In this document: one piece after another, positions 1 to 35,339 of the stretch
Layout: each line of letters begins with the position of its first letter
Numbering within the stretch: the first letter of the stretch is position 1
DNA from: Myxococcota bacterium
GTDB lineage: Bacteria; Myxococcota_A; Polyangia; Polyangiales; Houyiibacteriaceae
Length of the DNA stretch: 38,851 nt
Assembly: GCA_039201085.1 (NCBI GenBank)
Contig: JBCCRV010000001.1
Location: forward strand, 1-38,851
Reading direction: 5' to 3'
Position numbers and translations under genes: made by a program
Notes under the pieces: generated by a model
What the model was told of the DNA's origin: nothing
The model's database searches: none
Seen by the model: only the letters and a program-made list of their open reading frames with translations

Positions 1-2
1 CC

Positions 3-362
3 ACCGTCGACGATGCGGCCCAAAGCATGGAGACCGGCGTGCACGCGCCGCTGACTGGACGCCACACGATCGCCGATGGCCTGCGAACCCGCCTTGGTGA
101 GCGCGGCTTGGCGATTCTTCGGCGCCTGGAAGTGCCGATCATTCGCGTGCAGGAAGCGACGATCGTGCGCGCGATGCGTTTGCTTTTCGAGCGCGCCAAG
201 CTCGTTGTCGAACCCTCCGGCGCCGTACCGCTCGCGGCGCTCCTGGAGGCTCGCGAGTCAGGCCGAGGCCCGGAGGGCCAGGTGGCCCTCATCCTTTCGG
301 GCGGAAACGTGGACTTGGACACCCTCTTCACACCGCTTGAGAGCGCGACGGGCGCTGGCTAA
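3..362 (+). CDS. C-terminal fragment of a fold-type II PLP enzyme (threonine/serine dehydratase or serine racemase-like); 5' end outside the window
   Basis: The frame is open from the window edge (TVDDAAQS precedes the listed Met at 27). The tail VVEPSGAVPLAALL...VALILSGGNVDLDTL resembles the C-terminal end of threonine ammonia-lyase/serine racemase family proteins. Recognised by eye only. Confidence 0.6.
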   Translation, partial: TVDDAAQSMETGVHAPLTGRHTIADGLRTRLGERGLAILRRLEVPIIRVQEATIVRAMRLLFERAKLVVEPSGAVPLAALLEARESGRGPEGQVALILSGGNVDLDTLFTPLESATGAG

Positions 363-418
363 GCGGCGTCTGGGGGGATGGCAGCGGTTTCCACGCTCAA
401 CCTGGTACGCTCCCCTCG

Positions 419-796
419 ATGCGAGATCCCCTCGACACCCAGCAAGCCGAGCTGACGAACTTTGACAAGACCGCCGTGCGCGTATGCCTGCTTGGCGCCG
501 CGGTGATCATCGGCGTGTATTTTGGCTTCGTCGACGTCGCTTCGGGAAGCTACCGGCGAAGCCTCCGCGAGTTGCCGGAGCTCTCCGAGGTGGTTTTCTC
601 ACCGTTCTATCCGGTGAGCATGGCCATGCTCATGCTGTACCTCGCCTACTACGGCACCCGCCTTCGCAAGCTCTACGACCGCCCCAGCGCAAGCCAGGTG
701 CTCTTTCTGGGCATTCTGACGGCCGTATTGGCCAACTTTGGCTTGCTCTACGCGCTCATTAGCCCCGCAAGCCGCGCTTTTTCACCCCTGCGCTGA
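419..796 (+). CDS. Small hypothetical integral membrane protein (125 aa, about 3 hydrophobic helices)
   Basis: ATG start at 419. Hydrophobic segments VCLLGAAVIIGVYFGFV, FYPVSMAMLMLYLAYYG and VLFLGILTAVLANFGLLYALI. GC3-rich codon use. No family recognised. Confidence 0.5.
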   Translation: MRDPLDTQQAELTNFDKTAVRVCLLGAAVIIGVYFGFVDVASGSYRRSLRELPELSEVVFSPFYPVSMAMLMLYLAYYGTRLRKLYDRPSASQVLFLGILTAVLANFGLLYALISPASRAFSPLR

Positions 797-817
797 AGCG
801 AAGCCCATCGCTGGCGC

Positions 818-1489
818 TCAGCCGGCGTCGTCGAGGAAACGATCGAGCTCTTGAAGCACGGTCGGTGGGATGCCGTGACCCCCCTCAAAAGGATGCCACG
901 CCACCTGGACCTTGGCCTCCTCTAGGGCGTCCCGAAGCGCGTCGGCCCCCTGGATCGAAAGCACGGCGTCTTGGCGACCGTGGCTTTGAAACACGGGAAC
1001 GTCCGCAAGTTCCGCAAGGCGAGGCTTCCACCAGTCCTTTGCGAGGTACGTCCCCGAGAGGATCGTCAGGCTCCTCACCCGGTGATGAAGCGCGTAATCC
1101 GTAGCGAGCATGGCGCCTTGGGAAAAGCCCCCCAGGTGCACCCCAGATACGCCCGCGCGTTCACCCACCGCGTGAATGAGCGAATGCACCTGTCCACGAA
1201 GATCGGGCAGCGTTTCCGGATGCTCACCGGAGAGATCGCGCGGAATGCCCGTCATCATCGCCTGCTGAAGGGCCGCCATGTCGAGGCTCCACCAGGCTCG
1301 ACCATCGCCGTAGGCCGGTGGTAGACGTATGGGTGCAGCTGGAAAAACGTATTGACGCTCGTTTTTTAGAGCGCCAGCGAGCGGCACGAGATCCGTTCCG
1401 GGCGCTCCAAAACCATGAAAGAGGACCACCGCCGGGCCCCTATCTCCCACCCAACGCACCTCAAAATCGGCCACTCGAATCGTCTGCAT
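818..1489 (-). CDS. Phospholipase/carboxylesterase-family alpha/beta hydrolase (cytoplasmic form)
   Basis: VVLFHGFGAPG oxyanion region, nucleophile elbow GFSQGAML, and later HGRQD and GGHGIP complete a Ser-Asp-His triad. The ORF track starts at a TTG (1558). In-frame ATGs at 1510 and 1489 are more plausible, so the start is uncertain. Confidence 0.8.
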   Translation of the reverse strand: MQTIRVADFEVRWVGDRGPAVVLFHGFGAPGTDLVPLAGALKNERQYVFPAAPIRLPPAYGDGRAWWSLDMAALQQAMMTGIPRDLSGEHPETLPDLRGQVHSLIHAVGERAGVSGVHLGGFSQGAMLATDYALHHRVRSLTILSGTYLAKDWWKPRLAELADVPVFQSHGRQDAVLSIQGADALRDALEEAKVQVAWHPFEGGHGIPPTVLQELDRFLDDAG

Positions 1490-1591
1490 GCTGGCTACCT
1501 GAGGCGCCATCCAGGGCCGTGCATCCGCTACCGTGAGCAAACGCAGGAATAGGCTCAACGGACAAACCGTTACGATCTTTACCCTTGTACA

Positions 1592-1603
1592 AATTCGCGA
1601 ATT
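1592..1603. promoter_or_regulatory. Perfect 12-bp AT-rich palindrome AATTCGCGAATT, candidate operator or upstream activator site
   Basis: Read directly. The sequence is self-complementary and lies in an AT-rich island of the divergent intergenic region, about 140 bp upstream of the sigma-54 -24 element at 1739. Function is inferred only. Confidence 0.35.
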
Positions 1604-1642
1604 ACGAGGGTATCATCGTTATTTAACGCGTCTTTGGACCAT

Positions 1643-1653
1643 GCTGAGTCAGC
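1643..1653. promoter_or_regulatory. Second palindrome GCTGA-G-TCAGC in the same upstream region
   Basis: Read directly: 5+5 inverted repeat around a central base, about 90 bp upstream of the -24 element. Function unknown. Confidence 0.25.
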
Positions 1654-1738
1654 TTGGCGCACCGCGTTAGATACGATGTAGGACAAAGGGCGTCCAGATC
1701 TGCCTTGGCACGGGCCCGATCCACGTATTTCGCCAGAA

Positions 1739-1754
1739 TGGCACGAGCCTTGCT
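1739..1754 (+). promoter_or_regulatory. Sigma-54 (RpoN) -24/-12 promoter element TGGCAC-GAGCC-TTGCT
   Basis: Exact match to the TGGCAC-N5-TTGCW consensus. It sits on the + strand inside the intergenic region, about 209 nt upstream of the ATG (1963) of the first metalloprotease gene. Ten fixed bases give well under one expected chance hit in this window on both strands. Confidence 0.55.
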
Positions 1755-1880
1755 CCGGGCAGTTCGCCTCAAGCCCCGTGCACGTGGATCGACGTGCGCG
1801 CCTTGACGCCCCCCTGACCCTTGCCTACACCGCCATGCTCGGCGTTGTCGAAAAAACCGCTCGATTTTGACTACGGAAAA

Positions 1881-1950
1881 CACTTTTGAAGAAAGGTCGC
1901 CATCCAGCGGACCTTTCACATTTGAAAAGAGGACGTCCACCGCGTCCTCG
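1881..1950 (+). repeat. Tandem duplicated stem-loop module in the 5' leader (period about 36 nt)
   Basis: Unit A is CACTTTTGAAGAAAGGTCGCC with stem GAAAGGTC (1891-1898) / GACCTTTC (1910-1917). Unit B is CACATTTGAAAAGAGGACGTCC with stem GAGGACG (1929-1935) / CGTCCTC (1943-1949). The head sequences match at about 16 of 21 positions. The stem sequences differ but each stays self-complementary. The 3' arm of stem B abuts the GGAGG Shine-Dalgarno at 1950-1954. Confidence 0.45.
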
Positions 1951-1962
1951 GAGGCCCTCCGA

Positions 1963-4900
1963 ATGAAGCGTTCCCTTAGGTTGCTCACCCTGACCGCCCT
2001 CACCGCGGTCATCGCTGCCGGTTGCTCCCAGCCACCGACCATCAACCGCGTTGGTGTCAACGTCGTCGATAAGAGCCTGTTCACGGGCTCCTGGTACTAC
2101 TCGACCACGGTTATCGACGTGGACTACACGGCGTCGGGCTTCGGCACCTACCCCGGCGACTCGGCCTACGATTTCGCGACCGACGACATCACGTCGATGC
2201 CGCGAATTCGCTGGGTTATCGATGAAGATACGCTCTTCGCGTACCGCGATTATGAGATGTACGAGGGTGCGAACATCGACCGCGAAGGCAACACGGTGGA
2301 ACCCGGGCAAGAGATTCACTCGCCTGTGGCCGCTTTCGCAGTTGAGTCGCATTTCGACATCCAGCGCGACTACAACGTCGCGACGGGCGAAGAGAACAAC
2401 GTCCTCGTCGAGAACACGGAAGACCGCTTCTGGTACGAGCGCCAGTTCATGCGAGTCGACTGGTCGGCGAACCTGCTTCCCGCGTACTACGGCCAGATCC
2501 GCAACATCTACGAGGTCATCGGCCTCTACAACCGCGAGCCGGCTTCGCTCTTCGTTCAGGGCACGTCCGATTTCCCCGCGAGCTGGCGCCCCTCCTTCGA
2601 CTTCATGTCCTGCACGTCGGCAGACGACACCGAGTGTGCCGCTGAAGACCGCGACATGGCCGAGGACTACGACCAGGGCGAGTTCTACCACTTCAGCTTC
2701 GTCACCCAGGACATCCTCTCCCCCGGCATGGTCTTCGACCCCTTCGCCGGCCGCATGCTGAACTGGTGCCAATCGATCTTCGCCGACTCCCCCGACTGCG
2801 TCTCGGTGGCGGTTTACGTTCGCAACTCGTTCCTCAAGGTGAGCGACAGCCGCCAGTACATCGCGGAGAACTGGCCCGACTCACGCTTCGACCGCCACGG
2901 CTACTTCCGCCTCGAGCGACGCACCTTTGACCGCGCTTCGTCGTCCGACGCCAGCGACACGCAGCAGGGCTTCACGGACTTCCGCAACTACAGCGTCAAC
3001 CGCCACAACATCTGGCGCGATTGGACCGACGAAGCCGGTAACGTGCTTCCCTTCACGGAGCGTCGCACGCGCCCGCTCGTCTACTACACTTCGACGGAGC
3101 TTCCCGCCCACCTCGTGCGCCCGAGCTACGATCTCTCCGGAGCCTGGAGCCAGGTCTTCATGCGCCTCGTCCGGAACCTGCGCGGCCAGCAGGACATGGT
3201 CATTCCGCGGCAGAACTGCCAGACGGAAGACCCCGAAGCGTACTGCTACTGCACCGCAAACCCGGAGACCGGCGAGGTTATGAACCCCACATGCGCCGGA
3301 CACTGGGACCCCTTCGTACGCCCCGAGGAGTACCTCGCGCGCGGCGCCACCAACCCCTACGACTGCTGGGTTGACGTTCCCGAAGGTGCGGACCTGAGCA
3401 TCGAACAGCTCAACAACCCCGCCCTTAGCGACGAAGACTTCTACGGCTGGTTCGGTGCCTCCTTCCAGGGCTCCGAGTGCATGGTCGACCTTCGAATCAA
3501 CACTTGCAACCGCGCATCGGTCGCGGCCAACGAGGGCACGTCGGAAGGTCTTGAATGCCAAAACCGTGGCGACATGCGCTACCAGCTGCTCAGCTACGTG
3601 GACCAGCCCGGCACGCCGTTTCTCGGTGTAGCCACCCTTCGCGGCGACCCCGTTACCGGTGAGATTCGCGCGGGCGACGCCAACATCGGCGGTCCCGCTC
3701 TGGACGGCTACCGCACCCGTGCCCTTCAGGAGTATGATCTCATCAACGAGGGCATCACGGACCGCAACTTCCTCATCGGTGAAGACGTTCGCGACTACCT
3801 CTCCAACGTTGACCGCATTCAGCCGCCAAACCTGCCGGTTGAGCCCTTCATCGCGGCGAGCGTCGGCGTGGAGAACGCCACGCCAGCGATTGGTCGCACG
3901 GCCATCGCCAACCGCATGGCAGCGTTCGAGGGCCGCGCCCGCGCCCTTCAGGGACCGGAAGGCCGCACCGCGGTGCTTCAGGACCGCATGCTCCGCGCCG
4001 CGGGCACTGACCTCGAGGCGCGCCTCATGGGCGGCATGGAGATGCTCGCGATGTCCGGTGCCGAGTCGATGCCCGCCGGCTACGGCCCAGGTTCGACGCT
4101 CCCCGATGAGATGATGGAGCAGCTCTCGCCCTTCCGCACCAACGCGGCCGAGCGCCTCGCGTACCAGCGCGACCTGGAGACGCGTGTGTCGACGGCGAAC
4201 ATGATGATGCCCAACGAGTTCGTGGATGCGTCCGTGTCCGAGTTCGTGCGTCGCCACGCCGGTTGGCCCCGTGCTCGCCTTGAAATCACGCTCAACCAGC
4301 TTCTGTACTACCAGACGCAGCTTCACGAGCTTGGTCACTGCCTTGGCCTCCGTCACGACTTCGGCGCCTCCGCCGACATCGGCAACTACGACGATGACTA
4401 CTACATCATCAACAACACGTTCCCGAACCCCATCGCCGACGATTTCGATACGGACGGCACGCCCGGCCTGAGCCTCGAAGAGCAGACGGCCTTCGAGACC
4501 GAGTACCGTCGCGTCAAGGATCTTCGCGAGCTCGCCGGCATCGACCGCTGGATGAACTCCTCCATCATGGAGTACACCGCACAGTGGTACGAGCGTACGG
4601 CCACCACGCGCGGCGCCGGTCGTTACGACCATTCCGCCATCAACGCCGCCTACGCGGACCTCACGGAGATTTACGACAACTCCGCCGGTCTCTCGCTTGC
4701 GGAGATCAATCCGATCAACACGCCACGTCAGTGGGTCACCTTCTACAACGGCGGTGACAGCTGCGAAGTGGACACGGACTGCCCCTACGCGGCGGGCGGG
4801 CCAAACGGCGCGCTCCTCCAGCAGGGGAACCTCGACGCCGGGCTGACGCAGCGCTGCGTGCAGCACCCGAACGGCGGCGGCCGCGGCAACATCTGCTCAA

Positions 4901-6300
4901 ACTTCAACAGCGATTTTGACCAGCTGCTCGAGTCGTCGACCCGCTACGTGCCGGTCAACTACAACTTCTGCACCGACGACCTCGCGGACATTCGCCCCGA
5001 CTGTCACCGCTTCGATGAGGGTGACAGCTACCGTGAGATCGTTCGCAACCTCTCCGAGCAGTACGACCGTCAGTATATCTTCACGAACTTCCGGCGCTAC
5101 CGGTCCGGCTTCTCCTTCGGCGGTTACCTCTTCAGCCGTTTGATGGGCCGTCAGTGGAACATCCTCCAGTCCATGTACGCCGGTCTCGTGTTCGACTACC
5201 TGAACGACGACGATTACCGCAACACGTCGGGTAACTACCAGTTCGACGACCACTTCCTCGCGGCCGCCGACACGGTGAACTTCTACGCGCGCCTCGTGAC
5301 CCAGCCGGCGCTTGACTCGTACAACTACGATGAGGGCTGGCAGCGCTACGAGCGCACCTTCACGGACGATCCGACGATTCCGGGCGCGGACCTTGCTCTG
5401 CCGCTAGGCATGGCGCGCTACTCGAGCTCTGAGTTCCAGCGTGGTCTCACCGGCCTCGAGCGCCTCGAGCGCATCGGTACGTTCTTCGAGAAGCGTTCGG
5501 CGATGGAGATGCTTACGGGCCGCGGTTTCGTGCCCTCCTACGGCCGCGATGCGCTGCCCTTCTGGGTCAACTTCTACGACCTCTTCCCCGAAGAGATTCA
5601 GCAGATTTTCCAGGGCATGATGCTCGACCAGCCCGAGGTCATCGCGCCTCGCGTTCGCTGCTCGAACAACGGCATCGAGTGTGAGGATCCCGAACTCATC
5701 TACCTCGACTTCTACACGGGCGACCCGGACAACCCACGTCCTCCAACCGAGCAGCGCTACGCGGGCCTCGAGCATGTCGATACGGGCGCTGGCTTCCAGC
5801 TTCAGGCTTACGCACTCATCTTCGGTCTGCGCGACCTTCCGACCTTCTTCGACACCACCTTCGACCGTCAGGTCTTCGTATGTGTCGTCGGCGAGGGCGA
5901 TTGTCCCGACCGGGTCGAGGGCCAGGTCGAGGGCGTCGACTACATCGAGTACGCATCCGAGGACTTCGGAAAGACCTTCCGCGCTTGGCAGGTCAACCCG
6001 CGTGCGGACATTCCTTCGCAGCGTTCCATCTCCTTCGAGTACCTCCGCGAAGCCAAGGACTTGGCCACGACCCTTCGGGCCCTTCAGACCTACCGCGGCG
6101 ACTTCGGCGGCTCGCCCTTCACCCAGGGCAACCTCTCCACGGAGCAGCGCACTTTCCTCGATTCGATTGGCTACACGCTGCCGTCCGACCCGGAGACGTT
6201 CATCGAGGAGCTGAACCGAGTTGACCAACGCATCGGACAGATCGAGTCCTTCACCTTCTACACGCAGCAGTGGATCCGACTGCTGGGGATCGCGGGTTAG
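1963..6300 (+). CDS. Giant secreted lipoprotein, metzincin-type zinc metalloprotease (paralog 1, about 1445 aa)
   Basis: ATG at 1963 is preceded by GGAGG (1950-1954). Signal peptide and lipobox MKRSLRLLTLTALTAVIAAGC|S. Zinc site HELGHCLGLRH (4324-4356) plus Met-turn SSIMEY (Met codon 4567-4569). Collinear similarity to the next gene. The TTG at 1867 in the ORF track is rejected as the start. Confidence 0.9.
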   Translation: MKRSLRLLTLTALTAVIAAGCSQPPTINRVGVNVVDKSLFTGSWYYSTTVIDVDYTASGFGTYPGDSAYDFATDDITSMPRIRWVIDEDTLFAYRDYEMYEGANIDREGNTVEPGQEIHSPVAAFAVESHFDIQRDYNVATGEENNVLVENTEDRFWYERQFMRVDWSANLLPAYYGQIRNIYEVIGLYNREPASLFVQGTSDFPASWRPSFDFMSCTSADDTECAAEDRDMAEDYDQGEFYHFSFVTQDILSPGMVFDPFAGRMLNWCQSIFADSPDCVSVAVYVRNSFLKVSDSRQYIAENWPDSRFDRHGYFRLERRTFDRASSSDASDTQQGFTDFRNYSVNRHNIWRDWTDEAGNVLPFTERRTRPLVYYTSTELPAHLVRPSYDLSGAWSQVFMRLVRNLRGQQDMVIPRQNCQTEDPEAYCYCTANPETGEVMNPTCAGHWDPFVRPEEYLARGATNPYDCWVDVPEGADLSIEQLNNPALSDEDFYGWFGASFQGSECMVDLRINTCNRASVAANEGTSEGLECQNRGDMRYQLLSYVDQPGTPFLGVATLRGDPVTGEIRAGDANIGGPALDGYRTRALQEYDLINEGITDRNFLIGEDVRDYLSNVDRIQPPNLPVEPFIAASVGVENATPAIGRTAIANRMAAFEGRARALQGPEGRTAVLQDRMLRAAGTDLEARLMGGMEMLAMSGAESMPAGYGPGSTLPDEMMEQLSPFRTNAAERLAYQRDLETRVSTANMMMPNEFVDASVSEFVRRHAGWPRARLEITLNQLLYYQTQLHELGHCLGLRHDFGASADIGNYDDDYYIINNTFPNPIADDFDTDGTPGLSLEEQTAFETEYRRVKDLRELAGIDRWMNSSIMEYTAQWYERTATTRGAGRYDHSAINAAYADLTEIYDNSAGLSLAEINPINTPRQWVTFYNGGDSCEVDTDCPYAAGGPNGALLQQGNLDAGLTQRCVQHPNGGGRGNICSNFNSDFDQLLESSTRYVPVNYNFCTDDLADIRPDCHRFDEGDSYREIVRNLSEQYDRQYIFTNFRRYRSGFSFGGYLFSRLMGRQWNILQSMYAGLVFDYLNDDDYRNTSGNYQFDDHFLAAADTVNFYARLVTQPALDSYNYDEGWQRYERTFTDDPTIPGADLALPLGMARYSSSEFQRGLTGLERLERIGTFFEKRSAMEMLTGRGFVPSYGRDALPFWVNFYDLFPEEIQQIFQGMMLDQPEVIAPRVRCSNNGIECEDPELIYLDFYTGDPDNPRPPTEQRYAGLEHVDTGAGFQLQAYALIFGLRDLPTFFDTTFDRQVFVCVVGEGDCPDRVEGQVEGVDYIEYASEDFGKTFRAWQVNPRADIPSQRSISFEYLREAKDLATTLRALQTYRGDFGGSPFTQGNLSTEQRTFLDSIGYTLPSDPETFIEELNRVDQRIGQIESFTFYTQQWIRLLGIAG

Positions 6301-6311
6301 GGGAGGCTTAG

Positions 6312-9300
6312 ATGTCTACGAATCATCGCTTTTCATTCAACACCACCACGAACGTTCACACCATGCGCACTCGCTTACCCGTCATCTTCCTAGCCCTTGC
6401 CGCTCTTGCGGTGGGCTGCACCTCCGGTCAGGAGTCGGTCACCCGCACCCAGACCAACCTCGTTCCGAAGGACATCTTCACGGGCGAATGGTGGGTCAAC
6501 CAGACGGTCGTCGAGGCCAACGCGGACGACTCCTTCATGGGTCCGTACACGTTCTTCTCCGGTGGCGCGGGCTGGACCGACTACGCCCTCGACGGTGGTC
6601 AGTCGGGCGCCCTTAGCCGCATCCGCTGGGTCATCGACGAGGACTTCCTCTTCGCCTACCGAGCGTACGAGATCATCGACGGCGGTAACGACGACGGGAA
6701 CAACCCGAACTTCCGCGGCCAGCCGCTCGCTGCCTACATGATCGAGGCGCACGTGGATGTTCGCAGTCAGTACAACGGCCTTACCGGCGAAGAACTCAAC
6801 GTGGTGGTTGAGAACACGTCGGACCGCCGTTGGTACGAGCGTGATTTCATTCGCGTCGACTGGTCGATGAACCATGTGAACTCCTTCAACTTCCTGATCA
6901 ACGACGTGACGATGGGCGGCGGGTATCAGATGGAGTCGATGCCCTTCGACGTGCAGACCCGCGAGTCGAACCCCGATTTCAGCGCGGCCTTCGCGCCCCA
7001 GTTCGTGTCCGTCGGCAACGATCCCGACTACCGTTTCCGCGACGAGTGGCCGGAAGGCACCGAAGACACGATTCACTACATGAGCTTCACGAGCGTCACG
7101 CTCTTCTCGCCCGGAGGCAGCTGCTTCCTCATCGGTGGCGGTCCTTGCAACACGTTCTCCGTGCCGATGCGCACGGCGTTCCTTCGCGTTCCTCCCGGGC
7201 ACCGCTTCGCGTCGCAGCGCCAGTCGCACGACCAGTTCGACCGCTTCGGTCTCTTTCGCGCCCACCAGCGCAGCTACATTCGTGGTGGCGTGTCCGAGAT
7301 CGCTTGCACCCGCGACGCAGACTGTGGTTCGAACGGCTACTGTCGCCCGGCCTCCGCCGACGACAACATCCGCTACTGCAGCGGCCTTGCCTCCGACTTC
7401 GGTGAGACGGACGCTCTCAACTTCCTTCGTCCGACGCACAACATCTTTCGCGCCGGTCTGACGGACCAGGCTTGCCTCATCGATTCGCACTGCGGGACGG
7501 CGGGCTCGGTCTGTGATAGCGCCTCGCGGCTTTGCACCATTCCGATGCAGGACCGGGAAATTCGCCCGATGGCCTACCACCTGAACGAGGGCTACCCGGG
7601 CTACCTGGTCAACGCCGCCTACGAAGTGATGGGCAACTGGAACGAGGTCTTCATGCGCGGCTGGCGTGCGGTGCGGAACCTCACGGTTCCGGACTACTCG
7701 GTGGGCACGATCGCGTGTCAGAACGAAGACCCAACCTCCTACTGCTTCTGCGGTTCGGCGGACGATCTCGGCGGCTCCTGCCAGACCGAATACAACCCCT
7801 TTGTGACGCCTGACGAGTGGCGCGCTCAGGGCGTCGCCGACCCCTACGACTGCTACATCGCGAACGACAGCTTCACGGAGCCCTCGAACCCGACGAGCTT
7901 CGACCAGTACCACCCCGAGGGTGACTACGCGGCGGTGTACCGCTACGAGTTCATCGGCAGCGAGTGCATCTTCATGCTCGAGTCGAACAGCTGTGACCTG
8001 GCGCGTTCCTCCGCCGGCGAGCGCTGCGAAGACATCGTCGACGAAAACGGCGCGCCCATCACCTGGGAGCAGCACGGCGACCTTCGCTACCAGTTCTTCA
8101 ACTACATCCACGAGGCCGGCGTCCCCTTCGGCGGGCTTTCGGAGGTTCGCGGCGACGCGGTGACCGGTGAGCTGCTGGCTTCCGACGCCAACGTCAACTC
8201 CGGTGCACTCGACGGCCAGCGCACCCGCGCCATCGAGTGGTTCCCCGTTCTTCGCTGCCGCAACGCGGACCTTGGCTGCGCTCCCGGCGAGGAAAACGCG
8301 GACGTCCAGTACATCGAAGGTGAGAACGTTCGCCAGTACTTCGAAAACGTGGACCGCGTTGAAATCCCCGTCGCCATTGCCGGTTCCGGTGAGAGCGGCA
8401 TCCCGGAAACGGGCGGTCGCGTGTCGCCCTCGGGCGCATCCCGGCTGGGTGGCCTTCCGGCCTCCGACGCAATGCGGGTCGGCATGCTCGACCAGATTCT
8501 CGAGCGTCAGCCCATCCTGGACAGCATCTCCGGTGAAGACGCGCACTTCAACGTCTTCTCGTCACGCCTCCAGAACCTGGGTGAAACCGAGTTCGAGTCG
8601 AACCTGCTTAGTGCAGCGGAGACCGAGATTCGCGCCGGCCTCTACCACAACAACCCGCTCCGCAACACCGTTGCGATTGCGGAGTCGGCTTCGCTGCTTG
8701 ACGACTCCGTCGCGGACCAGACCTCGCCCTTCCGCAACCTTGGCGGCTTCATTGAGCAGGCGACGGACATCCAGCAGATGGAAGCGACGCTCTCCGCGCG
8801 AGGCGCCGATTTCTTCGAGCTCATGGATGGCAGAGACTTCCAGCGCAACCGCTACTGGGAGTACTGGGCGGAGGCTTTCCGCGGTCGCTCCGTGGAGGAA
8901 GCCGCCATTCGTATGGCCCAGCTCTACCTCCGTGCCGTCCAGCATCATGAGGTGGGCCACTCGGTCGGTCTTCGACACAACTTCGCCGGTAGCACCGACC
9001 GCAACAACTTTGGCGACGGCTACTTCCGCATCACCCTCAACCAGGACGGTTCGCCCGGTGCGGTGCTGCCGAACCTCGGTGACTACGATGCGCCGGCCCT
9101 TGGCGGTGACGGCGACCTCTTCGTAGGCGGCTCCGAGACATTCCGCTACCAGCAGGATCTCGACGAAGTTCGTGAGGTTCGTGCTGAGCGCGGCGCCCAC
9201 AACTACATGACGTCGTCCATCATGGACTACAACGGCGACATGTCGGACAGCTACGGTCTTGGTCGATACGACCAGGCGGCCGTGCTTTGGAGCCACTTTG

Positions 9301-11057
9301 GCCTGCTCGAGGCCTACGTTGGCGACCCGCGTATCGAGAACGGTCCAACGAGCCTTCGTGGCCTGCATCGCCGCTACGACACGGAGACCGGAGCGCAGAT
9401 CCAGCGTGTGCTGTGGTCATCTTACGAGGGCGGCGAAGACTGCTTCGTTCCCGAGGGTGGCGGCGCCGCCGACGCCGACTCGATGTGCCCCTACGCCGCA
9501 AGCAACGGTCTCCTCGCCGACGGCCAGATCATCGGCCAGCGTTGCGTGCGTAACCCGCGTAACTCACGGCTTCAGGAATCGTGTCAGGCCGGTGATACGG
9601 ACTGCCTCTGCTCCAACTTTGACGCGGACTTTGACGACTACGAGCAGAGCGCTCCGTGGGCGCCCAACGTTCGTGACGAGGACGGCAGTCTGGCGTTCTT
9701 CCCCGTGAACTACGCCTTCTGCGGCGACGAGCGCGCGATGGACATCTCCTTCTGCTCGCGCTTCGACGCGGGTGAGTCCTTCCAGGAGATCATCGCTCAC
9801 TACCGTCGCTCCTGGTACGAGGGCTACGCGAACGCGTACAACCGTCGTTTCCGCGGGACGCGCGCGGCCGCCTCCTTCGGTTCGCAGATGGACGCGCTGA
9901 AGATCTTCCAGCACCTCTACTACCGACTCTTCTTCGAGCCCGGCTTCCAGTCGAACTCCGGTCCGCTCGGTTTCCCTGACCAGTTCCAGGCCTCGGTAGA
10001 CGCAATGAACTGGCTTGTGGAGATCGTGAACCTCCCGGACCAGGGTGCGTATGCTCTCGAAGACGGCCACCTTCGTCGTATGTCCGAAGATCCGGCGATG
10101 CCTGGTATGGACGCCAACTTCGACGACGGCGCCGGCTTCCAGATGTGGTCCGAGTTCCAGACCGGTCACATGGGCTTCCGCCGAATCGAAAAGCGCGGTG
10201 TGTTCTTCGACAAGTACGTCGCCATCTTCCACCTCACGCAGCGGTTCGCGCCCATTGCACGGATCCAGCAGGTGGAGACGTTCCCCTTCAACTTCTACGA
10301 CCTCTTCCCGGTCCCGATGACCGAGTTCTTCGGCGGCATGATTCTCGACCGTCCGAGCTGGTTCGCGCCTCGCTACGACATGGCCACGGGTACCGTCGAG
10401 CACCTATCCTGGTACCGCGGCTTCGCCAACCTCATTCGTGAGTGCGGCCCGCGCGGCGCCACCGTTCCTTGTCGCGGCAGCAACGAGGAGGTTTACCCGG
10501 TCACCGACGAGCGTCCGGTCATCGACGACACCTCGAACATTGTGCTTCGTCAGTGGGCAACGATTCTTGCCCTCGCGACGTTCCCGAACGTCTTCGATAC
10601 AAGCTTCGAGCAGCGCCTCATCATCTGGCGTGACGGCGACGGTTCCGGCTACGACCTCCCGGTCATCTTCCGCGAGCGCACCACGGGTGAGGAACGCCCC
10701 TACTGCGCGTACGGTGACGGCACCATCGATGACCGCCACGTCGCGGCCGGTGCCGACCCGACCTGTGCCGACGCGGACGACGCCAACTACGTCACGTACG
10801 AGTCGGACCGTCTGAACTTCCGCTACGTCGCGGAAAAGACCTACACCCGTGAAACCGTCAACCTCGAGGAAGAGCAGATCGGCTTCCAGATGCTTCGCGG
10901 TCTTTACGACCTTCAAAACGAGGTTCGACGCCTTGAGGGCCTTGGCCCCTCGCCCGAGCTGGACGAGCGTCGTCGTGAGCTCTTCGAGGGCGAAAGCTAC
11001 CTCGAGTACCTCATCGACCTTCAGGCTCGTTTCGGTATCAACAACGCCTTCCTCTAG
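6312..11057 (+). CDS. Giant secreted lipoprotein, metzincin-type zinc metalloprotease (paralog 2, 1581 aa)
   Basis: ATG at 6312, 11 nt after the upstream stop, with GGGAGG at 6301-6306. Lipobox VIFLALAALAVGC|T. Zinc site HEVGHSVGLRH (8946-8978) and Met-turn SSIMDY (Met codon 9222-9224). An alternative start at ATG 6363 is possible. Confidence 0.9.
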   Translation: MSTNHRFSFNTTTNVHTMRTRLPVIFLALAALAVGCTSGQESVTRTQTNLVPKDIFTGEWWVNQTVVEANADDSFMGPYTFFSGGAGWTDYALDGGQSGALSRIRWVIDEDFLFAYRAYEIIDGGNDDGNNPNFRGQPLAAYMIEAHVDVRSQYNGLTGEELNVVVENTSDRRWYERDFIRVDWSMNHVNSFNFLINDVTMGGGYQMESMPFDVQTRESNPDFSAAFAPQFVSVGNDPDYRFRDEWPEGTEDTIHYMSFTSVTLFSPGGSCFLIGGGPCNTFSVPMRTAFLRVPPGHRFASQRQSHDQFDRFGLFRAHQRSYIRGGVSEIACTRDADCGSNGYCRPASADDNIRYCSGLASDFGETDALNFLRPTHNIFRAGLTDQACLIDSHCGTAGSVCDSASRLCTIPMQDREIRPMAYHLNEGYPGYLVNAAYEVMGNWNEVFMRGWRAVRNLTVPDYSVGTIACQNEDPTSYCFCGSADDLGGSCQTEYNPFVTPDEWRAQGVADPYDCYIANDSFTEPSNPTSFDQYHPEGDYAAVYRYEFIGSECIFMLESNSCDLARSSAGERCEDIVDENGAPITWEQHGDLRYQFFNYIHEAGVPFGGLSEVRGDAVTGELLASDANVNSGALDGQRTRAIEWFPVLRCRNADLGCAPGEENADVQYIEGENVRQYFENVDRVEIPVAIAGSGESGIPETGGRVSPSGASRLGGLPASDAMRVGMLDQILERQPILDSISGEDAHFNVFSSRLQNLGETEFESNLLSAAETEIRAGLYHNNPLRNTVAIAESASLLDDSVADQTSPFRNLGGFIEQATDIQQMEATLSARGADFFELMDGRDFQRNRYWEYWAEAFRGRSVEEAAIRMAQLYLRAVQHHEVGHSVGLRHNFAGSTDRNNFGDGYFRITLNQDGSPGAVLPNLGDYDAPALGGDGDLFVGGSETFRYQQDLDEVREVRAERGAHNYMTSSIMDYNGDMSDSYGLGRYDQAAVLWSHFGLLEAYVGDPRIENGPTSLRGLHRRYDTETGAQIQRVLWSSYEGGEDCFVPEGGGAADADSMCPYAASNGLLADGQIIGQRCVRNPRNSRLQESCQAGDTDCLCSNFDADFDDYEQSAPWAPNVRDEDGSLAFFPVNYAFCGDERAMDISFCSRFDAGESFQEIIAHYRRSWYEGYANAYNRRFRGTRAAASFGSQMDALKIFQHLYYRLFFEPGFQSNSGPLGFPDQFQASVDAMNWLVEIVNLPDQGAYALEDGHLRRMSEDPAMPGMDANFDDGAGFQMWSEFQTGHMGFRRIEKRGVFFDKYVAIFHLTQRFAPIARIQQVETFPFNFYDLFPVPMTEFFGGMILDRPSWFAPRYDMATGTVEHLSWYRGFANLIRECGPRGATVPCRGSNEEVYPVTDERPVIDDTSNIVLRQWATILALATFPNVFDTSFEQRLIIWRDGDGSGYDLPVIFRERTTGEERPYCAYGDGTIDDRHVAAGADPTCADADDANYVTYESDRLNFRYVAEKTYTRETVNLEEEQIGFQMLRGLYDLQNEVRRLEGLGPSPELDERRRELFEGESYLEYLIDLQARFGINNAFL

Positions 11058-11074
11058 TAGGCAACGAAGAAGTG

Positions 11075-11114
11075 AAGGAACGCCCGCGGCTTTTGGCCGT
11101 GGGCGCTTTCCTTT
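11075..11114 (+). terminator. Hairpin terminator after the metalloprotease operon
   Basis: GC-rich 9-bp stem CGCCCGCGG (11081-11089) / CCGTGGGCG (11097-11105, one G-U pair) with loop CTTTTGG. The stem is extendable by AAGGAA/TTCCTT with a 2-nt bulge. The 3' side runs into the T-rich CTTTCCTTT. Confidence 0.6.
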
Positions 11115-11200
11115 AAGGCGGATTTTACAGGACCGATGCGCAGCACCCTTGCTTGATCGGGCCGCGCTCACTACCGTCCGCTGGACCCCAAGGAGGTAGC

Positions 11201-12190
11201 GTGGCTTCAGGACGCGACGAACTACTGGCGCACTACGAGAAGATGTTCGAGATCCGCCGCTTTGAGGAAGAGGCGGCACGGGCGTACGCGCAGAGCAAAA
11301 TCGGTGGCTTCTTGCACCTCTATATTGGCCAGGAGGCCATTGCGGTGGGCACGAACGCCGCGCTTACGGACGACGACTACGTCTTTCAGACCTACCGCGA
11401 CCACGGCATCGCCCTCGCGCGGGGCATGAGCCCAAACGCGGCGATGGCCGAGCTCTTCGGCAAGGACGCCGGCTGCAGCCGGGGACTCGGCGGCTCGATG
11501 CATTTCTTCGACGTCGAAAACAACTTTCTCGGCGGCTGGGGCATCGTAGGCGGCCATCTCGCGCTTGCCGCTGGCGCGGCTTTCAAGTCGAAGTACACGG
11601 AAGATGGTCGAGTCACCGTCTGCTTCTTCGGTGAAGGGTCGACCAATATCGGCGGCTTTCACGAAGCGCTCAGCCTCGCCGGCCTCTGGAAGCTTCCCAT
11701 CGTGTTCATTTGCGAGAACAACCAATATGCGATGGGCACGCCGATGAGCCGCACCTCGCCCCTCGATGACCTCACCCTCAAGGCGCAGGGCTACGGCATG
11801 CAGGGCGACCGCTTTCAAGGGTACGACGTTCGCACCGTTCAGGAGCGCGTCGGCCTCGCCGTGAAGCGCGCCCGCCGCGGTGAAGGTCCGACCTTCATCG
11901 AGGTCGAAACGTACCGTTTCCGCGGCCACTCGATGAGCGATCCCGCGAAGTACCGAAGCCGTGCCGAGCTTGAAGAGCGCAAGAAGAAGGACCCGCTCGT
12001 CATTGCGCGCGACCTGCTCAAGGAAGCGGGCGTGGGCGATGAACAGATGGACGAGATCGAAGAGCGCGTCGAAGCGGCCATCGATGCGTGCGTAAAGTTC
12101 GCCGCCGCCGCCGAACCGGCAAAGGAAGAAGTCATGTGGGACACGGTGTACGCCACGGACCTCTCCACCAAGCGAGGGGCGGGCCGATGA
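11201..12190 (+). CDS. pdhA: Pyruvate dehydrogenase E1 component, alpha subunit
   Basis: GTG at 11201 is preceded by AGGAGG (11191-11196). TPP-binding signature FFGEGSTNIGGFHEALSLAGLWKLPIVFICENNQYAMGT and YRFRGHSMSDP. The upstream ATG at 11153 lacks an SD. Confidence 0.9.
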   Translation: MASGRDELLAHYEKMFEIRRFEEEAARAYAQSKIGGFLHLYIGQEAIAVGTNAALTDDDYVFQTYRDHGIALARGMSPNAAMAELFGKDAGCSRGLGGSMHFFDVENNFLGGWGIVGGHLALAAGAAFKSKYTEDGRVTVCFFGEGSTNIGGFHEALSLAGLWKLPIVFICENNQYAMGTPMSRTSPLDDLTLKAQGYGMQGDRFQGYDVRTVQERVGLAVKRARRGEGPTFIEVETYRFRGHSMSDPAKYRSRAELEERKKKDPLVIARDLLKEAGVGDEQMDEIEERVEAAIDACVKFAAAAEPAKEEVMWDTVYATDLSTKRGAGR

Positions 12191-13170
12191 GAGAGCTGCG
12201 TTACCGCGAGGCGCTGCGTGAAGCGATGATCGAGGAGATGGATCGGGACGACCGCATCTTCCTGATGGGCGAAGAGGTCGGCCACTACCAAGGCGCGTAC
12301 AAGGTCTCGGAGGGTCTGTTGGCCCAGTTTGGGGAAAAGCGCGTCATCGACACGCCGATCGCCGAAGCGGGCTTTGCCGGCGTAGGCGTTGGGGCGGCGA
12401 TGGTGGGTCTGCGGCCGATCATCGAGTTCATGACCTGGAACTTTAGCTTCGTCGCCTTCGACCAAATCATCAGCAATGCCGCGAAGATCCACCAGATGAG
12501 CGGCGGGCGCTTGAAGGTGCCCGTGGTGTTTCGCGGGCCGAACGGCGCTGCAAAGCAGGTGGCGTCGCAGCACAGCCACTCCGTCGATCCCTTCTACACG
12601 AACATCCCGGGCCTCTACGTCGTCATGCCGGCGACGCCCCGCGACGCGAAGGGCTTGCTCAAGGCGGCGATCCGCTGCGAAGACCCCGTGGTATTTCTGG
12701 AAGGCGAAACGCTCTACAACGTGAAGGGCGACGTGCCCGACGCGGACGAGGAAGAAGTAATTCCCCTGGGCAAGGGCCGCATCGCTCGCGAAGGATCGGA
12801 CTGCACGATCATCGCGTGGGGCCGGCCGTACTACACGGCCATGGCCGCCGCCGAGCAGCTCGCCGCCGAGGGCACCGAATGTGAGGTCGTCGACCCGCGC
12901 ACGCTGCGCCCCCTCGACACGGACCTGATGATCGAAAGCGTGCGCAAGACGAACCGCTGCGTGCTGGTGCACGAGCACTGGCCCTACGGCGGGCCGGGCG
13001 CCGAAATCGTCGACCGCATCCAGCGAGAGGCCTTTGACCATCTCGACGCGCCGATTCTGCGTGTGCCGGCCCTCGATGTGCCGATGCCCTACGCCACGAA
13101 CCTCGAGGAGCTCGTGCTCCCCACCACCCAGCGCGTCGTCGACGCCGTGAAGCGCGTCACCTACGCCTAG
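12187..13170 (+). CDS. pdhB: Pyruvate dehydrogenase E1 component, beta subunit
   Basis: ATG at 12187 overlaps the pdhA stop (ATGA). MRELRYREALREAMIEEMDRDDRIFLMGEEVG...VIDTPIAEAGFAGVGVGAA is a typical E1-beta N-terminus. A transketolase-like C-terminal region follows. Confidence 0.92.
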   Translation: MRELRYREALREAMIEEMDRDDRIFLMGEEVGHYQGAYKVSEGLLAQFGEKRVIDTPIAEAGFAGVGVGAAMVGLRPIIEFMTWNFSFVAFDQIISNAAKIHQMSGGRLKVPVVFRGPNGAAKQVASQHSHSVDPFYTNIPGLYVVMPATPRDAKGLLKAAIRCEDPVVFLEGETLYNVKGDVPDADEEEVIPLGKGRIAREGSDCTIIAWGRPYYTAMAAAEQLAAEGTECEVVDPRTLRPLDTDLMIESVRKTNRCVLVHEHWPYGGPGAEIVDRIQREAFDHLDAPILRVPALDVPMPYATNLEELVLPTTQRVVDAVKRVTYA

Positions 13171-13185
13171 GAGCCAAGTAAAGCC

Positions 13186-14421
13186 ATGGCGAAGATCATT
13201 GGATTGCCGAAGCTCTCCCCAACGATGGAGGAGGGCGTGCTGCTCGAGTGGACCAAAAACGAGGGCGACGCCGTCGAGATCGACGACCTCCTTGCGGAGG
13301 TGGAGACGGACAAGGCGACGATGGAGTTTCGCTCCTTCGACCGCGGCGTGCTCCTTAAGATCTTGGTTCCGGCCGGTGAGTCCCTCGCGCCCGATACGCC
13401 AGTGGCCATTATCGGCGACGCCGGCGAGGACATCAGCGAGCTGCTGGCCCAGGTGGCTTCGGCGCCCGCGAAGCCGGAAGCCGCCGCCGAAGCCTCCTCG
13501 CCGGCTGCGCCCGCTTCCCCCGCGCCCGCTGCAGCGCCTGCGCCCGCTTCCACCGCCGCCGTGGCACCGGAAGCGACGAGCGGCGAACGGGTGTTTGCGT
13601 CGCCCCTCGTCCGCCGTCTTGCGCGTGAACGCAACATCGATCTGCGCACCGTGTCCGGCAGCGGCCCGCGCGGCCGCGTGATCAAGCGCGACCTTGAAGG
13701 CGTGCAGGTGGCGCCCGCGCGCTCCGCCGGCGCCCGTCCTGGGCCGCGCGTCGTAAAGGCATCGCCCACGCGCAAGACGATCGCACGCCGCCTGACCGAA
13801 TCGAAGCAGACCGTTCCGCACTTCTACCTCACCATCGACGTCAACGCTGCGCCGCTGGTGGAAGCGCGCCGAATGATGAACAGCACGCTCGACGGCGACA
13901 AGGTCTCCTTCAACGACCTTGTGATCAAAGCGAGCGCATTGGCCCTTCGCGCCGTACCGGCGGCCAACGCCTCCTGGATGGGCGATGCGATCCACTTCCA
14001 TCAGGTGGTCGACATTTCCGTGGCCGTCGCCATTGATGAAGGCCTGCTGACACCCGTGGTGCGCGACGCCGACCTGAAGGGCGTGCTCGCGATCAGCCAC
14101 GAAGTGCGCGACCTTGCGGCGCGCGCGCGGAACAAGAAGCTTCGGCCCGAAGAGATGCAGAACGGCACCTTCAGCATCTCGAACCTGGGCATGTTCGGCG
14201 TTCAAGAATTCGCCGCGGTGATCAATCCGCCGGAAGGCGCCCTCCTTGCGGTCGGTGCCCTTCGCGACGACGTGGTCGTCGTCGACGGCCAGCTCACGGC
14301 CGGCAAGCGGATGAAGGTGACGCTTAGCTGCGACCACCGGGTGGTGGACGGAGCCGTCGGCGCCCAGTGGCTTCAGGCGCTGCAGAAGTACCTTGAAGCG
14401 CCGGCTTCGATGCTGCTCTAA
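13186..14421 (+). CDS. pdhC: Dihydrolipoamide acetyltransferase (E2) of the pyruvate dehydrogenase complex
   Basis: Single lipoyl domain with EVETDKATMEF. Ala/Pro-rich linker. E3/E1-binding domain ASPLVRRLARERNIDLRTVSGSGPRGRVIKRD. Catalytic DHRVVDGA motif. Confidence 0.93.
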   Translation: MAKIIGLPKLSPTMEEGVLLEWTKNEGDAVEIDDLLAEVETDKATMEFRSFDRGVLLKILVPAGESLAPDTPVAIIGDAGEDISELLAQVASAPAKPEAAAEASSPAAPASPAPAAAPAPASTAAVAPEATSGERVFASPLVRRLARERNIDLRTVSGSGPRGRVIKRDLEGVQVAPARSAGARPGPRVVKASPTRKTIARRLTESKQTVPHFYLTIDVNAAPLVEARRMMNSTLDGDKVSFNDLVIKASALALRAVPAANASWMGDAIHFHQVVDISVAVAIDEGLLTPVVRDADLKGVLAISHEVRDLAARARNKKLRPEEMQNGTFSISNLGMFGVQEFAAVINPPEGALLAVGALRDDVVVVDGQLTAGKRMKVTLSCDHRVVDGAVGAQWLQALQKYLEAPASMLL

Positions 14422-14501
14422 CCAACCGAGCGTGCTTCGGCGACAGCGGGCCGGATCCGCGTGGCGCACAGGGTTGGACGCGATCGGTAGTCGTCCGAGT
14501 C

Positions 14502-17763: not shown

Positions 17764-19236
<1,473 letters not shown>

Positions 19237-19324
19237 TGGGCGTCGCGAGTTCCTCCGCCTGCGCGCGCGCGTTGCGCCCGTACAATCCTTGCGGCCGCGC
19301 GTGCATAGCGGCGCCGTTCCGTTG

Positions 19325-19948
19325 ATGGACCTCTGCACCCATGGCTCGCCGTCCGAGGAAGCCGCCCGCCGGCTGGCGCGAATGCTCACCTCCGATTCGC
19401 CGCGCCTTGCCGTCAGCGGGGGCAGCGCACTCACCGTGCTTCCATTGCTCCGCGTACTCATGGGGCCGGCGCACGCAGCGCTCCGCCTAACCTATGCCGA
19501 CGAGCGTGCGGTGCCCTTCGAGTCGGACCAATCGAACGCGGGGGCCACGCGCACCTTTGTCAGCGGCGTGCGCGATGAGCTCCGCCTTTACCGCGATGGC
19601 GAATCGCTGGAGCAGGCCCAGGTGCGCGCCAGCCGCGCCTTCGACGAACGCTTCGGCGGGCTGGACGCCGTCCTGCTCGGATTGGGCGCCGACGGGCACA
19701 TCGCGTCGCACTTCACAGGCGTGGACGTGGAACCGACGGACGTCCCTGTGCAGCTCGTACGCGACAGTCCGAAACCGCCAAGGGAACGACTCACGCTTTC
19801 GATGGACGTGCTTGCCGCTACGGAGGCGGTGATCTTCGCGACCGGCGAAGGCAAACGGGCGGCGATTGAAGCGGCGCTTGGGGGCGGAACGACGCTGCCG
19901 ACGGCGCGGCTCAAACGCTGCACGATCGTCACCGATCTGGCGATATAG
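19325..19948 (+). CDS. pgl: 6-phosphogluconolactonase
   Basis: LAVSGGSA and GLGADGHIAS motifs of the 6PGL/NagB family, located directly after zwf. The start is uncertain: the ORF track begins at a TTG (19289), and ATG 19325 is chosen here. Confidence 0.8.
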   Translation: MDLCTHGSPSEEAARRLARMLTSDSPRLAVSGGSALTVLPLLRVLMGPAHAALRLTYADERAVPFESDQSNAGATRTFVSGVRDELRLYRDGESLEQAQVRASRAFDERFGGLDAVLLGLGADGHIASHFTGVDVEPTDVPVQLVRDSPKPPRERLTLSMDVLAATEAVIFATGEGKRAAIEAALGGGTTLPTARLKRCTIVTDLAI

Positions 19949-20082
19949 CCAACCGCGCGAGCGCTGGGCACCGCTACCGATGGCGCCGGCGCGAGAAGCC
20001 CTACACCTGCGCCCCAGGCCCATCGATTCGCCGTCCGCACTTCACTGCACGGCGTTGAGACGCAGCTGGTAGGCTCCGGCCC

Positions 20083-32212: not shown

Positions 32213-32223
32213 AGCCAGCCCGT

Positions 32224-34818: not shown

Positions 34819-35304
34819 CTCTTCATCACTCAGCAATGCGTGTGCCAAGCGGGATACGATGCCCTTTATCGTCAGCTCGCTCGAATCGAACCATCGGTGT
34901 TACGCGCAACGCCGCGTGCGTGACACTGCACGTGCACCTGCGTTCACGCCGCGGCGCACCCGAGCAAGGCTTCCGAGTGCACGGCTCCCAACTGTGCGCG
35001 GCGGGAAACGCCCATCGTTTCGTCCTCCCCACCAACGCGCACCGCATTTCGTTGCTTCGCGGTTAAGCGATAGGTACTGCGGTCCGAAACCGACCGCGCG
35101 CCGCCATGCGCACTGCACGGAACGAAGCACGCCAGATCGCGTACCGAATGCGCCACCTTCGTCGTTCGTGTCTTGCCCTGACTCGCCGGCGAAACCGCAT
35201 CCGAAAACTTGAGTGCGGTTGAAGACCGTTGATTGACCTGGTGTTCGTTGGGATCGCATGTCCAGATTGGGGCGCAACAAGAGCCGCCGGTGTGAGGTTC
35301 CCAA

Positions 35305-35320
35305 TGGCAGCCCCTTCGCA
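35305..35320 (+). promoter_or_regulatory. Weak sigma-54-like element TGGCAG-CCCCT-TCGCA upstream of the PD40 lipoprotein gene
   Basis: GG and GC dinucleotides have the correct 10-nt spacing. There are two mismatches to TGGCAC-N5-TTGCA. It ends only about 20 nt before the GTG at 35340, which would leave an unusually short leader. Confidence 0.2.
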
Positions 35321-35339
35321 AAGCTTCTAGTTTTGGATC

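Follow-up and report, generated by a model that had tools for sequence, protein, structure and literature searches.

A tandem pair of genes for giant metzincin-like lipoproteins

The stretch of DNA analysed here (the window) is a contig of 38.9 kb with a G+C content of about 64% (38,851 nucleotides; JBCCRV010000001.1, assembly GCA_039201085.1) from a Myxococcota bacterium of the Polyangiales, and it carries, side by side on the forward strand, two genes for very large paralogous lipoproteins with a zinc-protease site. Gene A (1963-6300, +) encodes a protein of 1445 residues and gene B (6312-11057, +) one of 1581 residues, as read from their open reading frames (ORFs) and translations; A is the shorter paralogue and always the first of the pair, and B is the longer and always the second. 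A reading of this DNA made from the letters alone (the sequence-only reading) had described the two as full-length collinear paralogues, and BLASTP bears this out, aligning A and B end to end over 1589 columns with 29% identity and 44% positives (E 2e-161). The sequence blocks that it had listed as shared (RIRWVIDED, ENTxDRxWYER, FDRxGxFR, GDxRYQ...RGDxVTGE...DAN, CSNFxxDFD and PVNYxFCxD) are all present, and most of the blocks shared by A and B are invariant or nearly so across 31-58 homologues.

Each protein contains a single HExxHxxGxxH zinc motif that is followed, at the distance of roughly 70-80 residues noted before, by a Met-turn. In A, the zinc motif HELGHCLGLRH (H788, E789, H792 and H798) occupies residues 788-798 (4324..4356, +) and the Met-turn SSIMEY (M869 and Y871) residues 866-871 (4558..4575, +). 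The zinc motif of B, HEVGHSVGLRH (H879, E880, H883 and H889), lies at residues 879-889 (8946..8978, +), and its Met-turn SSIMDY (M970 and Y972), placed by the A/B alignment, at residues 967-972 (9210..9227, +). The distance from the third His to the Met-turn is thus 71 residues in A and 81 in B, and both zinc motifs fall in a match to Pfam DUF4953. The residues H788, E789, H792, H798, M869 and Y871 (A numbering) are invariant across A and B, as is the zinc motif in all 31 aligned homologues. In a scan of 346 family proteins whose N-termini are intact, exactly one HExxHxxGxxH was found in 114 of 114 A-type, 115 of 117 B-type and 344 of 346 family proteins overall, and an S.M.Y within 160 residues of the zinc site in 114 of 114, 109 of 117 and 325 of 346, respectively. 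Because the three His, the general-base Glu, the Met-turn and the Tyr are kept in both paralogues, both should be catalytically competent and should cleave peptide bonds. A pseudo-protease partner occurs in many M16 pairs, and we rejected this arrangement for A and B since both keep all of the catalytic residues.

The two genes are separated by an 11-nt spacer (6301..6311, +) that carries what looks like a translational-coupling signal, in agreement with the sequence-only reading: the TAG stop codon of gene A is at 6298-6300, the Shine-Dalgarno sequence GGGAGG follows directly at 6301-6306, and the ATG of gene B is at 6312. A terminator-like hairpin with an 11-bp stem (9 G-C pairs) and a T-rich tail lies 24 nt past the gene B stop (11081..11115, +), where the terminator search found 1 site against 0.6 expected in shuffled sequences, which taken alone is weak evidence. 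On the upstream side, gene A is flanked by an Abhydrolase_2 gene on the opposite strand, and on the downstream side gene B is followed by the gene for pyruvate dehydrogenase E1 alpha, neither of which is related to the pair. From the coupling geometry at the start of B, the hairpin after B and the unrelated flanking genes, we conclude that A and B form a two-gene operon.

The National Center for Biotechnology Information (NCBI) annotation of this contig starts gene B at a second ATG at 6363, giving a protein of 1564 residues (P0121). In all 14 orthologous loci that we inspected, however, a GGAG-like Shine-Dalgarno motif and an ATG are found 10-14 nt past the A stop, and in B orthologues (junctions of L004-L051) translation from this upstream ATG adds 17-30 polar residues, with N, Q, H and T abundant, ahead of the canonical signal peptide. 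Because this geometry is conserved in 14 of 14 loci, the start at 6312 appears better supported than that at 6363, and B is probably coupled translationally to A. The N-terminus of B (6312..6419, +), defined by its translation and by those 14 loci, would then consist of a polar extension, MSTNHRFSFNTTTNVHT (6312-6362), ahead of the lipoprotein signal peptide MRTRLPVIFLALAALAVG-C. The position of this extension is conserved, and it might be an extended signal-peptide region or a mere coupling spacer.

Both proteins have lipoprotein signal peptides, as had been claimed from the sequence. The A protein begins MKRSLRLLTLTALTAVIAAGC|SQ, with the signal peptide MKRSLRLLTLTALTAVIAAG-C21 (1963..2025, +) read from its translation, the lipobox AAGC ending in Cys21 and a Ser at +2; in B, the lipobox AVGC ends in Cys36 (codon 6417-6419), with a Thr at +2. 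Lipoboxes occur in 86 of 114 Met-starting A-type homologues and 94 of 117 B-type homologues, and in 75-80% of the sequences in each of three homologue groups; the homologues that lack one probably have mis-called starts. We infer that A and B are exported and acylated. A Lys at +2 retains lipoproteins in the inner membrane of Myxococcus, and because A and B have Ser or Thr at +2, not Lys, and a Cys content of 26-35 that suggests disulfides, they are predicted to reside in the outer membrane.

Gene A is preceded by a 5′ leader (1931..1962, +) with a hairpin, GAGGACG...CGTCCTC, at 1931-1949 and a Shine-Dalgarno sequence, GGAGG, at 1950-1954, 8 nt downstream of which is the ATG. Folding of the RNA from 1880 to 1975 yields several hairpins (-32.4 kcal/mol, z -3.0 against shuffled sequences), and in the predicted fold the GGAGG is base-paired with a downstream CCUCC. 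The leader may be a translational control element. No Rfam family matched in a scan of window positions 1-12500, which include this leader, and no sigma-70-like promoter was found upstream of gene A.

Predicted architecture and relation to known metzincins

We ran AlphaFold2 on segments of A with a 58-sequence alignment. The model of residues 23-620 (ma9917a81dea0, 598 residues) has a predicted local distance difference test score (pLDDT) of 82.8 and a predicted template modelling score (pTM) of 0.82, and that of residues 331-1445 (mbed99cd2b28e, 1115 residues) has a pLDDT of 85.4 and a pTM of 0.86. Together, these models indicate a compact multi-domain body and not beads on a string. The N-terminal domain (about residues 23-360, some 340 residues; 2029..3042, +) is predicted to be rich in beta structure, with long strands, and it carries the motifs RIRWVIDED, ENTxDRxWYERxFxRVDWS and FDRxGxFR. 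It has no Pfam match, and the best Foldseek match to the PDB for it has an E of 0.08 with a template modelling (TM) score of at most 0.1. The C-terminal region (about residues 906-1445, some 540 residues; 4678..6297, +) is predicted to be alpha/beta, with a pLDDT mostly of 80-95, the motifs CSNFxxDFD, PVNYxFCxD...CxRFDEG and NFYDLFP, and conserved Cys. It likewise has no Pfam match, and the best Foldseek match of the 331-1445 model to the PDB has an E of 1.9.

Between these two regions lies the putative metzincin catalytic region (about residues 365-905; 3055..4677, +), whose boundaries are estimates. The usual order in metzincins is a strand, a backing helix, a sheet, the active-site helix and the Met-turn. 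In the A model, a strand at 372-376 and a backing helix at 382-406 (AWSQVFMRL) are followed by a Cys-rich insert at about 407-496, then by strands at 500-576 that carry the invariant GDxRYQ / LGVATLRGDPVTGE / DAN, then by a helical insert of about 160 residues at about 599-761, and finally by the zinc helix at 770-793 and the Met-turn. Thus, the core appears to be a metzincin core that is split by two large inserts, with its elements otherwise in the usual order.

Foldseek was run for both models against 350,542 PDB chains with a threshold of E <= 0.001, and no match reached this threshold. The top rows (coronavirus spikes, FlgK and nuclear receptors) all have TM scores of at most 0.1, and we rejected them as noise. 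In a separate Foldseek search against BFVD, the 331-1445 model matched a 1072-residue 'zinc-dependent metalloprotease' of Catovirus CTV1 (A0A1V0SBN5) at an E of 0.034, a probability of 0.72 and a TM score of 0.12; this match is not significant, and the viral protein may be a remote giant-virus relative.

Among Pfam families, DUF4953, named 'Met-zincin', scores above its gathering cut-off of 24.2 bits in both window proteins, in 31 of 31 orthologues and in 34 of 34 diverse representatives. In A, the match has 27.0 bits and covers residues 786-806 (profile positions 17-37), and in B it has 28.5 bits and covers residues 868-896 (profile positions 8-36). Sub-threshold Pfam matches of other metzincin families fall on the same zinc helix. 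Scanning A and B with NCBIfam gave nothing above the cut-offs, and a family profile searched against all PDB sequences matched only at the zinc motif, with an E of at least 0.017; the catalytic segment alone did no better against PDB sequences than the full-length profile. More than 1000 residues of each protein are without a described domain or a neighbour of solved structure, and so the statement of the sequence-only reading that this much of each protein holds no domain that could be named survives the Pfam, NCBIfam, PDB-profile and Foldseek searches. The length of these proteins is not covered by described domains; Pfam sees the zinc helix only.

We then made a core profile from 14 family members with the two inserts removed and searched it against the PDB. 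This spliced core matched the astacin-family hatching enzyme 3vtg at an E of 0.001, from the zinc helix through the SSIMxY, and it matched MMP-1 at an E of 0.0014, with an alignment of the backing helix that is correctly placed but non-significant. With EcxA (4L63), the match has an E of 0.055 and covers 23 residues of the zinc helix only. Judging from the motifs, the order of the elements and these weak profiles, we infer a metzincin core in which the Met is followed by a Tyr of the astacin/serralysin type.

The sequence-only reading had likened both proteins to the DUF4953/DUF5117-type metalloproteases, and this comparison holds for DUF4953 at the zinc helix, while DUF5117 was not detected. 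The likeness to DUF4953 (PF16313) is the zinc helix HExxHxxGLRHNF, which takes every family member tested above the cut-off. The difference is that the alignment takes in just 20-30 of the 316 profile positions in A and B and no more than about 100 in their relatives: the longest alignment, found among seven distant relatives, spans positions 6-101, about from the zinc helix to the Met-turn, and the C-terminal two thirds of the model is never matched by this family. Canonical DUF4953 proteins have about 800 residues, as against 1250-1600 in the A/B family. DUF5117 (PF17148) was found in none of the two window proteins, 31 orthologues and 34 diverse representatives. We rejected the DUF5117 link over 74 proteins, the single sub-threshold match (E 0.0016, 18.7 bits against a cut-off of 27) being confined to one of the seven distant relatives and not reproduced. 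For TIGR03952 (the BF0631 family), which has an equivalog cut-off of 208.1 bits, A scores 13.9 bits and B has no match, and so A and B lack both hallmarks of the canonical DUF5117-DUF4953/BF0631 lipoproteins.

The UniRef name of one family member (P0320) calls DUF4953 the 'EcxA zinc-binding domain'. EcxA/CfxA (PDB 4L63 and 4L6T; Ng et al. 2013, cited in PMC11610972) is the metalloprotease A subunit of an AB5 toxin and a putative metzincin. EcxA has the same type of zinc helix, but it is a protein of 266 residues whose gene is followed by one for a cholera-toxin-like B pentamer, whereas the A and B lipoproteins are 5-6 times larger and there is no toxin B-subunit gene at their locus, where the downstream gene encodes pyruvate dehydrogenase E1 alpha. 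Astacins (M12A) share with A and B the SxMxY Met-turn with its Tyr, and the hatching enzyme 3vtg is the best PDB sequence match; however, the astacin signature HExxHxxGFxHExxRxDRD is absent from A and B, where D/N-F comes after the third His (RH(D/N)F). In family relatives, Pfam Astacin reached at best an E of 1.9e-4, below its cut-off of 22.5 bits. A and B are also without MAM, TRAF or EGF domains, and Foldseek gave no match. SslE/YghJ-type lipoprotein metalloproteases have about 1500 residues and a gluzincin-like motif (M60-like/M98), and they resemble A and B in being very large Gram-negative lipoproteins with a single HExxH and long, poorly annotated regions. They differ in that neither A and B nor 65 relatives have an M60-like or related Pfam match, in that the motif of A and B is the metzincin HExxHxxGxxH with a Met-turn, and in that the window holds no linked type II secretion operon. 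By these comparisons of sequence, the A/B family stands apart as a branch of giant metzincins that is as yet uncharacterised.

Conservation of the pair and spread of the family

A protein identical to A (P0001) is recorded from a Myxococcota MAG at NCBI. Homologues of A number more than 300 (1420-1510 residues) and those of B more than 240 (1490-1640 residues), and throughout the match lists the A-type and B-type homologues sit on the same contigs. On three long contigs with unrelated neighbourhoods (L001-L003), the B orthologue follows the A orthologue within a few nt. We scanned GTDB with one genome per species, which gave 373 stretches with relatives, and classified the long ORFs in 68 loci. 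In about 45 of these species-representative loci, A is followed by an adjacent B, with differing flanks. The sequence-only reading had left it as a matter to be surveyed whether orthologues always occur as adjacent pairs, and wherever a locus extended fully to both sides and held a clear A orthologue, B was directly downstream. The paired loci all come from Polyangiales, Sandaracinaceae or 'Deltaproteobacteria' metagenome-assembled genomes (MAGs), and across the order the pair is present once per genome. In one MAG (CAZAQV01), contigs 1 and 5 carry A/B pairs with identical BLAST scores (L012 and L058), which may be a second copy of the operon or assembly redundancy.

Neighbour-joining trees group A and B as sister clades and put the single-copy relatives (about 25% identity) outside them as the outgroup; L024, a groundwater MAG that branches deeply, already possesses an A-clade and a B-clade gene. 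These trees place the duplication that gave rise to A and B before the radiation of Polyangiales and Sandaracinaceae. A recent lineage-specific duplication, with no conservation elsewhere, is ruled out by the trees and by the synteny, which trace the pair as an old one through about 45 species. Tandem pairs also occur in other clades of the family: at L054 (2847-11128) and L070 (6842-15425), the upstream genes cluster together, as do the downstream genes, and both groups are apart from the A/B split, while at L064 (5450-13671) the two copies look recent. This suggests that pairing arose more than once and that L054 and L070 descend from a second old duplication, the tree being a crude one.

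Across 70 A and 70 B sequences, 195 positions are conserved to at least 90% in both clades, and because these are evenly spread from residue 1 to about residue 1300, the whole body and not the catalytic core alone is apparently under constraint. A further 48 positions are conserved to at least 90% within each clade and yet differ between A and B; they include 870 (E/D) and 873 (A/G) beside the Met-turn and, within the strand block, 541 and 544. Since the clades have stayed distinct since an old duplication, this pattern fits long-standing, non-redundant roles of A and B, and it would fit a complex and two specificities alike.

The sequence-only reading had also proposed an uncharacterised family of very large proteins, and the searches bear this out. 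Our exhaustive profile search, with a query built from residues 23-1200 of A, the corresponding region of B and five distant members, covered 1.84 billion cluster representatives and returned 4615 matches at E <= 1e-3, 2400 at E <= 1e-10 and 1206 at E <= 1e-30. The best 150 matches, which were listed, are near-full-length and are proteins of 1220-2240 residues or fragments of these; all are giants, and the boundary between this family and canonical DUF4953 proteins falls outside them. A and B are sister clades inside this large family. Single-copy relatives of 1250-1400 residues are found in Myxococcaceae, Archangiaceae, a Bdellovibrio MAG and the cultured Bradymonas sediminis (P0320), and 10 diverse representatives of clusters come from MAGs of Myxococcota, Bradymonadia and 'Proteobacteria'. 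The database names of members are 'hypothetical protein' or 'zinc-dependent metalloprotease'; we found no characterisation of the family in the literature, and no paper on DUF4953 or DUF5117. In the longest members (P0489, P0446 and P0483; 1870-2240 residues), a DUF4397-like segment is inserted N-terminal to the zinc site, with scores that are borderline (E 1e-6 to 1e-3) and fall short of the gathering cut-off.

Possible roles of the pair and the genes around it

In about 24 loci, the pair is directly followed on its own strand by the pyruvate dehydrogenase genes for E1 alpha, E1 beta and E2 (in the window at 11153-14421 and in L001 at 18114-21298). This synteny of the protease pair with a core metabolic operon is conserved. 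The window also has genes for G6PD and malic enzyme near the pair. In 16 Sandaracinaceae-type loci (including L018, L022 and L034), an M16 (insulinase) gene for a protein of about 1200-1280 residues and an ORF of 520-560 residues with no Pfam match are found about 1-7 kb upstream of the A orthologue, on the same strand, an arrangement that the window does not show. Neither secretion-system nor toxin genes accompany the pair with any consistency.

We consider it rather likely that A and B are active lipoprotein metzincins which are exported, are translated together and have non-redundant roles. With B coupled translationally to A, both proteins would be made together, and both would be exported and anchored through a lipid on the N-terminal Cys. 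Each would form one compact body composed of the beta-rich N-terminal domain, the insert-split metzincin core and the C-terminal alpha/beta region, and both would be zinc endopeptidases with a presumed role in extracellular protein degradation. A physical partnership of A and B at the outer membrane is a more tentative proposal, which we rate somewhat short of an even chance; it is favoured because genes that always occur together, in one order and with a conserved coupling signal, classically encode subunits. Purely as an analogy, the closest functional counterpart of the conserved A/B pair may be meprin, whose alpha and beta chains are active, paralogous metzincins that differ in their cleft residues and assemble into hetero-oligomers at a membrane. 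We regard as improbable the most specific version, an obligate A-B heterodimer of about 330 kDa on the cell surface, in which the two large domains lacking structural relatives would enclose two different active sites in a shared, gated substrate chamber for the digestion of extracellular protein or prey. If it were true, this heterodimer would be a new cell-surface architecture for protein degradation that is specific to Polyangiales and Sandaracinaceae, with its single-subunit ancestors persisting in Myxococcaceae, Bradymonadia and Bdellovibrio.

Several points weigh against the reading of A and B as a co-translated pair of active, exported metzincins, or against its extension to a partnership. 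The fold is assigned from motifs, from the succession of secondary-structure elements and from weak profile matches (E ~1e-3), and Foldseek searches with the models recovered no classical metzincin catalytic domain from the PDB. The rules for sorting by the +2 residue were taken from Myxococcus and may not hold in Polyangiales. Adjacent and active paralogues in a conserved order are equally expected for two independent enzymes, and the conserved neighbours are housekeeping genes (pyruvate dehydrogenase), which would be no less expected beside genes for a core function in the envelope than beside genes for foraging or predation. Finally, we found no experimental or literature characterisation of any family member.

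The main rival reading, which we also rate short of an even chance, is that A and B are independent outer-membrane or secreted proteases that specialised on different substrates after an old duplication, do not associate physically and are adjacent only through a shared promoter. This is what one could expect from the complete active sites of both and from the 48 clade-specific differences, some of which lie near elements of the cleft; moreover, B has extra Cys-rich inserts that are absent from A and present in the single-copy relatives, and single-copy members evidently act alone in Myxococcaceae, Bradymonas and Bdellovibrio. On the other hand, A and B co-occur strictly 1:1 and in a fixed order across about 45 species with conserved Shine-Dalgarno/ATG spacing, features that are more typical of subunits needed in a fixed ratio than of enzymes that are merely co-regulated, and tandem pairs have arisen repeatedly in the family. 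A pair of housekeeping proteases that face the periplasm, and that serve the processing or quality control of outer-membrane or matrix proteins and not foraging or predation, seems unlikely to us, though as an alternative to such roles it deserves to be taken seriously. The sequence-only reading had offered predation or matrix remodelling as possible roles, and the conserved pyruvate dehydrogenase neighbours do not point to predation; together with the G6PD and malic enzyme genes of the window, the single pair per genome across the whole order, the very strong full-length conservation and the lack of consistently linked secretion or toxin genes, they are in keeping with a housekeeping role in the envelope. 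Yet the +2 residues and the conserved Cys suit either face of the outer membrane equally, and the M16 gene upstream of the pair in the 16-locus subclade suits a chain of degradation from protein to peptide as well.

We think it very improbable that either protein, or both, serves as an adhesin, receptor or scaffold in which the zinc site is kept for binding or structure. Such a role could account for the more than 1000 residues per protein that have no assigned function or structural neighbour, and the large predicted inserts in the catalytic core could occlude the cleft. Pseudo-enzymes usually lose their catalytic residues, however, and here the HExxHxxGxxH is kept in 344 and the S.M.Y in 325 of the 346 proteins, across clades that are 24-31% identical.

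Metzincins are among the best-studied proteases, and this giant branch of them, with more than 1200 sequence clusters, is uncharacterised. About three quarters of each protein is without a described domain or solved structure despite confident AlphaFold models, and a solved structure of a member would probably add new folds and a new, insert-bearing build of metzincin. Myxococcota, Bradymonadia and Bdellovibrio are known for predation and for the degradation of macromolecules, and to our knowledge their extracellular proteolysis is poorly mapped. The A/B pair offers a clean test case of how duplicated proteases become non-redundant partners. If A and B should be ordinary independent proteases, the result would still be a useful annotation for thousands of proteins now named 'hypothetical' or 'zinc-dependent metalloprotease'.

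The window also contains long minus-strand ORFs at 2881-4866, 6390-8546 and 11839-14469, all of which overlap real genes, and we rejected them as shadows of those genes in a genome of 64% G+C; the ORF at 11839-14469, the only one of the three that was scanned, had no Pfam match. Four other minus-strand ORFs of the window (22369-24174, 30386-32227, 34900-35667 and 36514-38388) have no Pfam match at E <= 0.001, and they are adjoined by genes for a PrkA kinase (28226-30274) and an RCC1-repeat protein (32224-34848).

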